From NCBI GenBank assembly GCA_947259995.1, contig CAMYOK010000002.1, positions 224,881 to 288,880 of the forward strand: a stretch of 64,000 nucleotides of DNA, given 5' to 3'. Shown here one piece after another: positions 24,833-32,332 of the stretch. Numbering within the stretch: position 1 is the stretch's first letter; each line of letters opens with the position of its first letter. The notes below the pieces were generated by a model. It did not search any database and was not told where the DNA came from. It was given only the letters and a program-made list of their open reading frames with translations. Source of the stretch: an uncultured Pseudomonadales bacterium. Lineage in GTDB: Bacteria > Pseudomonadota > Gammaproteobacteria > Pseudomonadales > Pseudohongiellaceae. The position numbers and the translations under genes were made by a program.

Positions 24833-25591
24833 ATGACGTATTGTGTGGCAATCGCCGTCGATGCAGGCATGGTCTTTTGCTCAGATTCCCGCACGAATGC
24901 AGGCATAGATCAGGTTAGCACTTATAGCAAAATGTATCGCTTTGGAGTCGACGGGCAGCGCCAATTCGTCATCCTTTCGGCGGGCAATCTTGCCACTACT
25001 CAAGCGACAATCTCCCAAATAAAGCGGGACATAAAAGAGCGGGCGACCACAAGTTTATTAACGGTGGAATCCCTAGCGGATGCCGCCGATTACTTAGGTG
25101 ATGTGTCACTGGCCCAACAAGAGAAACATGCAAAGACAGGGGTTTCTTTCGAGGCCAGTTTTATCATTGGCGGTCAAATAGCTAACAGTAAGCATCGCAT
25201 CATGTTGGTCTACCCACAGGGCAACCATATCACTAGCTCTAAAGACACGCCCTATCTGCAAATTGGCGAGAGCAAGTACGGCAAACCCATTCTCGACCGC
25301 ATTCTCACCCCAGAGCTCAATCTAGACACCTGCGCACTCTGCGCCATGGTCTCGATGGACTCGACAATGCGCAGTAATTTGAGTGTCGGCCCCCCCATTG
25401 AAACTCTCGTATACCGAACTGACACCATGACCTTAATTGAGCCATTGCGCTTCGATGAGGACAGTGAGTTTTTGCGGGAATTAAAGCGTAGTTGGGATCA
25501 GCGACTCAAGGATGCATTTCGACAAATGCCCCCTTTCGCCTGGGCATCTAGTTGGGATAAATCCGCTGATGAACAAAACGGAGCTTATTAA
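24833..25591 (+). CDS. Anbu (ancestral beta-subunit) proteasome-homologue peptidase
   Basis: 252 aa. The N-terminus is MTYCVAIAVDAGMVFCSDSRTNAG, with Thr right after the initiator Met. Length and motifs match the bacterial proteasome-type protease (COG3484). The neighbouring ATP-grasp, alpha-E and transglutaminase genes fit the Anbu context. Confidence 0.85.
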   Translation: MTYCVAIAVDAGMVFCSDSRTNAGIDQVSTYSKMYRFGVDGQRQFVILSAGNLATTQATISQIKRDIKERATTSLLTVESLADAADYLGDVSLAQQEKHAKTGVSFEASFIIGGQIANSKHRIMLVYPQGNHITSSKDTPYLQIGESKYGKPILDRILTPELNLDTCALCAMVSMDSTMRSNLSVGPPIETLVYRTDTMTLIEPLRFDEDSEFLRELKRSWDQRLKDAFRQMPPFAWASSWDKSADEQNGAY

Positions 25592-26597
25592 GCGTCGTTT
25601 CTGAGAGCACAAACGGATAAGCATCTTGCAGGCCCATACTGCGATTTAACGCGTTCATCGCTACCGAAACACTATCCCAGTTCTTTAAGCACAACTCAAT
25701 ATCGGGCGCGACGTTGGGTGTTATCAGTTTCTCTTGTAATAAACCTACCTGCCAAGCCGTCTCTAAGCAGTCGACCATATGCAGGTAATGCGCCCAACAT
25801 TCGGCCCAATCTTCATGCGGGTGCATTTGCGCATAGGCACTCACTTTGTCGTTATCAGACGCGCTCGCGGGGCGCTCGTAATGCTCCTTCATCGCCTCTT
25901 CGTAGTCAGCCCGCTCATCGCCAAACAATTCTCTAAACTGCTCTATCGCTGCAGGCGTATTGACGACTTTTTCGAAATAATAATGCCCACTCTCATGGCG
26001 AAAATGCCCGAGCAATGTTCTGTATGATTCACCGAGACTCTGCCTCGCTTGCTCGCGATTTACACCATCGGCTTCTGCCAAGTTCACCGTGATCAAGCCT
26101 TCAAGGTGGCCTGTAAGCACATGCTCTTCTTCCACGTTCGGGTTTGAGCGCTGATCTTCAAGAAACGAGAAGGCAAGCCCAGACTCATTGCTCGCTTTGC
26201 TTTCAACTGGCAGCCCTAGTGCTAGCAAGGTGTAGATCAAGCGTCTTTTCGCCGCCTCCATACGCCCCCACCATTTACGCCTTTGTGAGGCACGATAACT
26301 GGCTCCTACTTTTGGCACAGTATCGTTTAGGGAACAGGCAAGACAAAAGCTGTCTTGGGAGTTCACTACCAACCAATTGCACACGTGGAAGTCGGTATCA
26401 TTGCTGCAACGGCGATAAAGATTGCCGTGATCAACATCGCGCCATTGCCCTGTGGCCTCATCCGAATCGGGGCTTGAGGGTTCTATCGCCAGAAGTTCGG
26501 CGCGCAACGGATCGTAACCCAGCAGGCGCTGGCAGGCATTACAAGTCGTGTTTTCGAAAAACAGACTTTGCCCGCATGTACACTGAAAATCTCTCAT
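25548..26597 (-). CDS. Zinc-ribbon plus putative zinc metallopeptidase (Peptidase_Mx-like, HExxH)
   Basis: 349 aa. The N-terminus is MRDFQCTCGQSLFFENTTCNACQRLLGYDP (zinc ribbon), and HESGH is present in LLGHFRHESGHYYF. It is the last gene of the three-gene minus-strand operon with the ATP-grasp and alpha-E genes. Confidence 0.75.
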   Translation of the reverse strand: MRDFQCTCGQSLFFENTTCNACQRLLGYDPLRAELLAIEPSSPDSDEATGQWRDVDHGNLYRRCSNDTDFHVCNWLVVNSQDSFCLACSLNDTVPKVGASYRASQRRKWWGRMEAAKRRLIYTLLALGLPVESKASNESGLAFSFLEDQRSNPNVEEEHVLTGHLEGLITVNLAEADGVNREQARQSLGESYRTLLGHFRHESGHYYFEKVVNTPAAIEQFRELFGDERADYEEAMKEHYERPASASDNDKVSAYAQMHPHEDWAECWAHYLHMVDCLETAWQVGLLQEKLITPNVAPDIELCLKNWDSVSVAMNALNRSMGLQDAYPFVLSETTLNKLRFVHQRIYPN

Positions 26598-32000: not shown

Positions 32001-32332
32001 AAGGCGAGTTTGTCGGAGGTGTCCGCTATAAAGCCTGGGCACCATGGTCTGCATTGCACCCAACTATCAATGTACATTCGCCATTAGTTATCGACATCGT
32101 TGACACTCACCATAAGCGCTCCCTTGGTGGCTGCACCTACCATGTCTCACATCCTGGCGGCAGGAATTATGACACCTTCCCCGTCAATGCAAACGAGGCA
32201 GAAGCTCGACGTGTCGCGCGGTTCTGGCAACATGGCCATAGCCAAGGTGAAATGGATTTAGACCTAAGCGAACCACACAGCGCGCACCCTTATACCCTAG
32301 ACATGCGTTACAATCACCGACCTAAAAAATAG
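29060..32332 (+). CDS. Large transglutaminase-family protein (Bact_transglu_N, transglutaminase core and DUF2126 putative amidoligase region)
   Basis: 1090 aa. The N-terminus is [33 protein letters not shown]. The transglutaminase catalytic region is [27 protein letters not shown]...[21 protein letters not shown] (Cys-His-Asp). A long C-terminal extension is typical of COG4196-type proteins. Confidence 0.85.
   Translation: [1090 protein letters not shown]

Follow-up and report, generated by a model that had tools for sequence, protein, structure and literature searches.

An Anbu, permuted ATP-grasp and alpha-E gene cluster with a zinc-ribbon peptidase in place of the stand-alone transglutaminase-like gene

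Anbu is a widespread proteasome homologue whose structure has been solved several times; to our knowledge its substrate, partners and role are unknown more than 15 years on. Here we describe a five-gene cluster containing Anbu, located in a 64,000-nucleotide (nt) stretch of DNA (hereafter, the window) from an uncultured Pseudomonadales bacterium of the family Pseudohongiellaceae (contig CAMYOK010000002.1 of assembly GCA_947259995.1, positions 224,881 to 288,880). In addition to Anbu, the cluster encodes a circularly permuted ATP-grasp ligase, an alpha-E protein, a Peptidase_Mx family protein that carries a zinc ribbon (Mx), and a fusion of transglutaminase (TGase) domains with DUF2126.

The closest described system is the canonical Anbu operon of Pseudomonas, Yersinia and Ralstonia, in which genes for ATP-grasp (COG2308), alpha-E (COG2307) and TGase-like (COG1305) proteins accompany Anbu (Valas and Bourne 2008; Iyer et al. 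2009). The ATP-grasp protein of this operon frees phosphate from ATP, and Anbu displayed neither peptidase activity in vitro nor a stable complex with its operon partners (PMC6376114). Co-expression left the form of Anbu unchanged (PMC5666114), and a further report states that "No function is known" (PMC8665760); these three studies bear out the view, expressed in an initial annotation of the window, that no substrate or role of Anbu is known. The TGase-like protein was predicted by Zhang and Aravind to reverse peptide tags added by the ATP-grasp enzyme (PMC3495828), and growth with a poor source of nitrogen strongly induces the operon of Pseudomonas putida (PP_2685, PP_2688) (PMC3235984, PMC8050072). 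The window cluster is like the canonical operon in that its proteins are homologous (41% identity to Ralstonia for Anbu, 50% for ATP-grasp and 31% for alpha-E), its gene order is ATP-grasp, alpha-E, peptidase, and no AAA+ partner was found among its scanned flanking ORFs. In contrast to the canonical arrangement, its third gene encodes a predicted zinc-ribbon zincin rather than a papain-like TGase-like protein, and a TGase-DUF2126 fusion gene is attached divergently. Moreover, its Anbu gene converges on that for Mx with a 44 nt overlap, whereas canonical Anbu is the co-directional last gene, as in Ralstonia (locus L087), where ATP-grasp, alpha-E, TGase and Anbu all lie on one strand.

A second group of clusters, typified by Rv2566-Rv2569c of Mycobacterium tuberculosis, is centred on COG4196; as in the window, a TGase-DUF2126 fusion adjoins a permuted ATP-grasp and alpha-E (PMC2588565). 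Iyer et al. (2008) described the Rv2566 family as a transglutaminase joined to a member of the carboxylate-amine ligase superfamily (PMC2588565). In clusters of this type, DUF2126 is followed by a second, "type-B" ATP-grasp/alpha-E pair and a small TGase, neither of which was found in the 64 kb window. The genes of the M. tuberculosis cluster are taken to follow this pattern. Reportedly, the abstract of the 2009 study by Iyer and co-workers presents the permuted ATP-grasp, a permuted glutamine-synthetase-like ligase, the N-terminal-nucleophile (NTN) peptidase and alpha-E as one system.

Two better understood systems offer analogies. Like pupylation (Pup/PafA/Dop/Mpa/20S proteasome), the window cluster joins a proteasome-family hydrolase to a predicted ligase of the glutamine synthetase superfamily, which would permit the same logic of ligase, de-ligase and degrader; unlike pupylation, it has no AAA+ unfoldase that we could find and no verified tag, its ligases belong to other families, and it is known from genes alone. 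The tubulin tyrosination/glutamylation cycle (TTL; CCP or MATCAP) likewise pairs an ATP-grasp writer with a metallopeptidase eraser, an analogy proposed earlier for the TGase-like version of the system (PMC3495828). However, the ATP-grasp of the window is circularly permuted and is not TTL, and Mx is unrelated to CCP and MATCAP.

Our results identify the cluster, almost certainly, as a conserved variant, carried by a marine gammaproteobacterium, of the Anbu/permuted ATP-grasp/alpha-E system, maintained both vertically and horizontally, in which Mx replaces the stand-alone TGase-like peptidase, Anbu is inverted and interlocked tail-to-tail with Mx, and TGase-DUF2126 is divergent. It is a widespread variant of a known, functionally uncharacterised system, and is neither a unique merger, nor a defence island, nor categorically new. 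To the best overall explanation, which joins this identity to a cytoplasmic mechanism that would write, erase and degrade amide bonds, we assign a probability of roughly 0.45.

Genes and layout of the cluster

The features of the cluster, by position in the window, are as follows.

24745-24779, plus strand: promoter-like block 5' of Anbu, from an alignment of 14 upstream regions
24833-25591, plus strand: Anbu, a proteasome beta-like Ntn hydrolase of 252 amino acids (aa) (PF00227 and solved Anbu structures)
25548-25591, both strands: tail-to-tail coding overlap of Anbu and Mx, 44 nt
25548-26597, minus strand: Mx, zinc ribbon plus Peptidase_Mx predicted zincin, 349 aa (PF15887 and PF10005)
26614-27588, minus strand: alpha-E protein (COG2307), the partner of ATP-grasp, 324 aa (PF04168)
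27592-29040, minus strand: ATP-grasp ligase of the circularly permuted type (COG2308), 482 aa, which leads the minus-strand operon (PF14403, PDB 3n6x)
29041-29059: spacer between the divergent start codons of ATP-grasp and DUF2126, 19 nt
29060-32332, plus strand: TGase-DUF2126 fusion, 1090 aa (PF08379, PF01841 and PF09899)
29060-29887, plus strand: TGase-like Cys peptidase domain of the fusion, residues 1-276, with invariant C180/H229/D245
residues 277-1083 of the fusion, plus strand: DUF2126 putative amidoligase domain (Pfam description, PMC2588565)

A six-frame list of open reading frames (ORFs) reproduced the coordinates of all five genes exactly, including the tight minus-strand operon, whose gaps are 3 nt (ATP-grasp/alpha-E) and 16 nt (alpha-E/Mx). 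Pfam likewise upheld every domain call of the initial annotation (Anbu, zinc ribbon with Peptidase_Mx, alpha-E, permuted ATP-grasp, TGase with DUF2126), with scores well above curated thresholds except for the weak PF00227 Proteasome match of Anbu (26 bits). The assignment of Anbu is backed by five distinct solved Anbu proteins, which it matched at E values of 1e-56 to 3e-72 (phmmer; 5nyw, 5lox, 5nyj, 5nyf and 5loy), with 1e-61 recorded against 5nyw of Yersinia bercovieri. As read from its sequence, Anbu begins MTYCV, which would leave Thr1 once Met is removed, and both Asp17 and Lys32 are present. The ATP-grasp protein scored 564 bits against PF14403 (CP_ATPgrasp_2) and 466 bits against PF04174 (CP_ATPgrasp_1), and PDB 3n6x is a close relative (E 1e-160). 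Alpha-E matched PF04168 with 297 bits; a sequence search of the PDB found no solved relative of it. No NCBIfam model matched any of the five proteins, and on inspection of the sequences none of their N-termini resembles a signal peptide.

Mx scored 309 bits against PF15887 (Peptidase_Mx; gathering threshold 27) and 81 bits against PF10005 (Zn_ribbon_DZR_6; threshold 23). Its zinc ribbon consists of two Cys4 clusters, C6/C8/C19/C22 and C64/C73/C85/C88, and all eight cysteines are invariant in our alignments, as are the HExxH motif (residues 201-205, nt 25983-25997) and an EDWAE..H..H block (residues 262-273). An AlphaFold2 model based on 86 sequences was confident, with a predicted local distance difference test score (pLDDT) of 89.8 and a predicted template modelling score (pTM) of 0.90. 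Foldseek returned no PDB match to this model at E ≤0.001; the best recognisable matches, all weak (E ≥0.1), were to zincins, namely anthrax lethal factor (probability 0.28-0.44), LTA4H and GtgA. Single-sequence and profile searches of the PDB found no relative, leaving this weak structural resemblance to zincins. This resemblance agrees with the prediction by Lenart et al. (2013) of a zincin fold for DUF2248, with lethal factor as the best FFAS match; DUF2248 is the older name of PF10005, which then covered Mx-type proteins (PMC3650047). We regard Mx as a predicted zincin with an N-terminal double zinc ribbon and without a solved close relative. An exact-sequence look-up of the window protein gave no record. 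The "Peptidase_MX" of PMC2701414 is a Pfam clan that is irrelevant to Mx, and was set aside.

The fusion protein comprises Bact_transglu_N (PF08379), Transglut_core (PF01841) and DUF2126 (PF09899, 1299 bits). The catalytic triad of its TGase domain (C180/H229/D245) is intact and invariant in the alignment, and the TGase N-domain resembles 3isr of Cytophaga hutchinsonii (Foldseek, 1e-11). A single-sequence search of the PDB with the DUF2126 protein yielded only a weak match (E 0.17), again to the TGase N-domain of 3isr. Pfam describes DUF2126 as a putative amidoligase and, on the basis of that description and of PMC2588565, the domain is putatively an amidoligase with a glutamine-synthetase-like fold. 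If this assignment is accepted, the locus holds two predicted ligases rather than the one ligase and three hydrolases counted in the initial annotation.

The layout leaves little room between genes. The 44 nt overlap of Anbu and Mx offers no space for terminators between the converging genes, and the 19 nt spacer between ATP-grasp and DUF2126 means that the promoter of each gene must sit within the opposite one. This spacer measures 18-19 nt and is kept in sequence in 12 relatives; it is longer in loci L005 (347 nt), L092 (120 nt) and L174 (269 nt). Identity at synonymous codons is weakly raised over the first 20 codons of both ATP-grasp and DUF2126 and is highest at ATP-grasp codons 71-90, a pattern that may reflect embedded promoters. 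The Mx/Anbu interlock, taken with the divergent junction of 19 nt, leads us to predict regulation by antisense transcription or overlapping promoters. A generic scan for promoters and terminators gave results no higher than those of shuffled sequences, one weak sigma-70-like site lying at 28994-29023 on the plus strand; sigma-54 consensus matches in the window were at chance level, with none near the cluster, and an Rfam scan of positions 23000-37000 found no match.

Upstream of Anbu lie a small acidic ORF (described below), a hairpin, and then the conserved block at 24745-24779, which reads TTCACC-N9-AACTAGTGTACTGTTTCG, stands about 55-90 nt before the start codon, and aligned in 14 relatives. 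The block is kept in part even among Pseudohongiella loci. Immediately 5' of the Anbu start codon is a conserved AATCCGGTT, with no obvious Shine-Dalgarno sequence. Given the hairpin after the small ORF and the promoter-like character of the block, the latter is a candidate Anbu promoter, and Anbu is probably a separate transcription unit.

Conservation across genomes

To place the cluster in a wider context, we used two samples of related loci (numbered with the prefix L): the 80 best species-genome loci for Mx by tblastn, out of at least 575 species genomes matching, and 80 more diverse metagenomic loci for DUF2126 at 55-62% identity. Both "best 80" samples are biased to relatives of the query and consist mostly of metagenome-assembled genomes (MAGs), and tblastn has only moderate sensitivity for small TGases. 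Anbu occurred within 10 kb of Mx at 55 of the 80 Mx loci, compared with about 0.5% per genome expected by chance (rough arithmetic assuming random placement in a genome of ~4 Mb); co-occurrence of Anbu with the zinc-peptidase variant is thus far above chance. Within the same distance, ATP-grasp of the window's type (type A, below) was found at 58 loci, alpha-E at 57 and DUF2126 at 18.

The carriers of Mx include Pseudohongiellaceae, SAR86, Cellvibrionaceae, Halioglobus, Marinimicrobium, Glaciecola, Porticoccaceae, Thiotrichales, Chromatiales, Nitrosomonas and one Rhodospirillales MAG. The genes occur in at least five orders, adjacency being retained throughout. In some loci ATP-grasp/alpha-E/Mx faces Anbu; in others Mx faces Anbu and ATP-grasp/alpha-E comes next; still others have Mx/ATP-grasp/alpha-E but no Anbu, or have Mx adjoining DUF2126. 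The 3' overlap of Mx and Anbu recurs in 58 of 63 convergent pairs (L001-L092); it ranges from 32 to 107 nt, with a mode of 44 nt (32 pairs) that persists down to 43% Mx identity. One Pseudohongiellaceae MAG (L045) has ATP-grasp/alpha-E/Mx without Anbu, and there the small acidic ORF abuts Mx directly.

The complete five-gene set was present at 14 loci beyond the window (15 in total), in at least four chromosomal contexts: in the window's own clade, with rhomboid, HtpX and MATCAP genes on one side; in a Pseudohongiellaceae MAG, beside CitMHS; in a Cellvibrionaceae MAG; and in the cultured Aurantivibrio infirmus (L174, GCA_054767315.1), between genes for an extracytoplasmic function (ECF) sigma factor and a TonB-dependent receptor. 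A four-gene set is carried by Marinimicrobium agarilyticum DSM 16975, Marinimicrobium locisalis and Glaciecola sp. XM2. The variant is therefore not special to the window locus: dozens of species genomes have it, and the Mx family as a whole exceeds 7,500 clusters at E ≤1e-5. The functional linkage which the initial annotation had proposed is supported, since the adjacency of the genes recurs in related genomes and their domains were assigned as predicted.

In the second sample, DUF2126 was adjoined by ATP-grasp at 57 of the 80 metagenomic loci, by a small TGase at 42, by Anbu at 20 and by Mx at two. Two architectures dominate. One is type-A pair/TGase-DUF2126/type-B pair/small TGase, which we take to be the M. 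tuberculosis Rv2566-69 pattern. The other, ATP-grasp/alpha-E/Anbu/TGase-DUF2126 without a separate peptidase, is exemplified by L121, L123, L134, L152, L164 and L169, and by L093; like the window, these loci co-locate Anbu, a type-A pair and DUF2126, but they lack Mx, and in all except L093 the genes are co-directional. L093 has the layout of the window minus Mx, with the mixed orientation kept. The initial annotation saw in the window a merger of two contexts normally found apart. These observations speak against that idea: the settings of Anbu and DUF2126 overlap within a single modular network, in which the lineage-restricted element is Mx. This picture agrees with the work of Iyer et al. 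(2008; PMC2588565) and, reportedly, with that of Iyer et al. (2009). A 2026 preprint that mentions Rv2567 proved to concern Rv1722, with Rv2567 as a negative control, and was not considered further.

Alpha-E always adjoins ATP-grasp across the related loci. Two paralogous pairs of these genes are present in L061, L075, L077, L081 and many of L094-L173. Type A, to which the window pair belongs, shares at least 45% identity with that pair and is found in linkage with Anbu or Mx; type B shares 30-38% identity and always precedes a small TGase. Pairs of the two types often flank one DUF2126 gene.

The megaplasmid of Acidithiobacillus caldus (L086, NZ_CP005987.1) carries two Anbu paralogues beside DUF2126/ATP-grasp/alpha-E, with no Mx and no small TGase. 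This locus adjoins ntrC/glnL and insertion sequence (IS) elements, and a sigma-54-like TGGCACGCCTATTGCG lies 68 nt 5' of ATP-grasp. The annotated length of its DUF2126 protein is just 842 aa, and the TGase N-domain gives a separate alignment further 5'; the gene may be split or misannotated.

On the far side of the fusion gene, the window contains three further genes for predicted peptidases.

32346-33578, minus strand: rhomboid
34112-34993, minus strand: HtpX
35016-36413, minus strand: MATCAP/DUF1704 metallocarboxypeptidase homologue, 2.7 kb from the cluster

This protease-rich flank (32346-36413) and the cluster together hold six predicted peptidases in about 12 kb. Linkage of the rhomboid, HtpX and MATCAP genes to the cluster was seen only in the window's own clade (L001, L003). 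The G+C content over 32001-34000, which covers the rhomboid gene and its upstream region, is 0.43, compared with about 0.50 elsewhere.

Proposed function and alternative explanations

The position that Mx occupies provides a clue to chemistry. The initial annotation had placed a zinc-ribbon HExxH peptidase where a small TGase is usual, and comparison with Ralstonia (L087) agrees; tblastn, with its moderate sensitivity, detected a stand-alone TGase-like gene at none of 59 loci with both Mx and Anbu, nor in the window. Six loci (L093, L121, L123, L134, L152 and L164) have neither Mx nor a stand-alone TGase, yet possess TGase-DUF2126. The third operon slot can thus hold a papain-like fold or a zincin fold, or be empty when TGase-DUF2126 is adjacent. 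Because the folds are interchangeable, the conserved activity of the slot would be amide hydrolysis and not transglutaminase cross-linking: a zincin forms no acyl-enzyme intermediate and cannot transamidate. This reasoning favours a hydrolytic "eraser" role for the third slot. The new evidence here is this interchangeability.

We propose, tentatively and at somewhat less than even odds, that the cluster encodes a module acting in the cytoplasm to write, erase and degrade amide bonds. In such a module, ATP-grasp, with alpha-E as its obligate partner, would activate a carboxylate using ATP and ligate an amino acid or short peptide to a protein or peptide. DUF2126 would act as a second ligase of the glutamine synthetase type that brings its own cysteine peptidase, Mx would hydrolyse or trim the added amide bond, and Anbu, as an N-terminal-threonine hydrolase, would degrade or process the marked substrate. 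The gene identities, catalytic motifs, operon structure and co-conservation on which this proposal is based are observed; substrate, tag and order of steps are our inference.

Several observations weigh against this interpretation. None of the members of the system has a known substrate, tag or product, and Anbu, as noted above, lacked peptidase activity and a stable complex with operon partners (PMC6376114). No AAA+ unfoldase was found in the scanned flanking ORFs (19810-38848) or in related loci, no convincing tag gene was seen in the neighbourhood, and no sigma-54 or other regulatory signal was detected within the window. The searches also gave no match to a glutamine-synthetase-like fold for DUF2126: a profile search of the PDB found no relative of the domain, and the full-length model of the fusion was mediocre (pLDDT 72.6), Foldseek matching its TGase domain and not DUF2126. 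Conservation itself was judged from samples biased as described. Moreover, 14 of the 80 Mx loci (6 of the 52 with full flanks) have no Anbu, type-A ATP-grasp or DUF2126 nearby, such that Mx may also act outside the system.

The main alternative, which we consider somewhat less likely, is that the cluster serves the nitrogen metabolism of small molecules. The product of the two ligases would be a metabolite of the gamma-glutamyl, polyamine or oligopeptide type, either a nitrogen store or a scavenging intermediate, and the three hydrolases would break down that metabolite or imported peptides, with no tagging of proteins. Consistent with this, the PDB entry of the nearest solved ATP-grasp, 3n6x, names it a putative glutathionylspermidine synthase, DUF2126 is placed in the glutamine synthetase/gamma-glutamylcysteine ligase superfamily, and the lack of a Pup-like ORF nearby led Iyer et al. 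(2008) to prefer "peptide formation reactions" (PMC2588565). Nitrogen limitation puts the canonical operon among the most strongly induced genes (PMC3235984, PMC8050072), the A. caldus locus adjoins ntrBC with its sigma-54-like site 5' of ATP-grasp, and Anbu is inactive on proteasome substrates (PMC6376114). However, sigma-54-like sites were found only in some relatives without Mx, and in the window none lies near the cluster. No transporter or biosynthetic gene is consistently linked to the related loci, Anbu is an oligomeric proteasome-like particle, and the double zinc ribbon of Mx would be a module more typical of macromolecule recognition.

A quite different possibility is a Pup-like system built around the small ORF upstream of Anbu.

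24311-24583, plus strand: small acidic ORF upstream of Anbu, 90 aa, borderline PA3496 family

This protein, which has the conserved core LTE[LM]RRR[IT]EERLD[WS]KR, would serve as a tag for ligation or as an adaptor, with Anbu as the degrader. About 41 loci have an acidic ORF of 73-91 aa at 155-255 nt 5' of Anbu, Gln is the last residue of many Pseudohongiella-type copies, as it is of Pup, and a putative glutamine-synthetase-like ligase (DUF2126) and a proteasome homologue are both present. Against this, the ORF matches the widespread PA3496 family only at the borderline, its C-terminal residue varies (R, H, L, S, Q, A or D), and no AAA+ ATPase was found in the flanking ORFs or related loci. 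It is also absent where the four- or five-gene unit sits elsewhere (L005, L030, L044, L046, L174), retained in L045 where Anbu is missing, and accompanied by AMP-binding and ADH neighbours that form a syntenic backbone. The ORF thus tracks the chromosomal backbone and not the cluster, and is probably not a component of the system; we regard Pup-like tagging as very improbable. The same degree of doubt attaches to a complete tagging pathway, analogous to Pup or the tubulin code, in which the acidic protein would be tag or Anbu adaptor, ATP-grasp/alpha-E and DUF2126 would act as ligases, Mx as the isopeptidase that removes the tag, and Anbu as the degrader. A last explanation is that unrelated genes came together by chance, or that the cluster is a mobile island for defence or toxins. 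Anbu does lie on the opposite strand and the solitary Mx genes could be read in this way; but the genes stay adjacent in many lineages and in varied orders, and Mx and Anbu keep their 3' overlap. Further, PADLOC gave no match for six proteins, the whole window contains no tRNA gene (integrases were not searched for), and there is no marked compositional break across the cluster. We give this explanation a negligible chance, and the co-occurrence counts effectively refute the accidental version.

The presence of two unrelated peptidase folds in one slot, which can also be empty beside TGase-DUF2126, suggests that this slot supplies amide hydrolysis and narrows the chemistry to be sought. The variant does not answer what the system does, but it sharpens the hypothesis and offers tractable organisms: with the five-gene set in cultured A. 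infirmus and the four-gene set in named strains, genetics and proteomics are feasible. Should the tagging model be true, Gram-negative bacteria would have a new system of post-translational modification; should the metabolite model be true, the cluster would represent a new nitrogen-starvation pathway.

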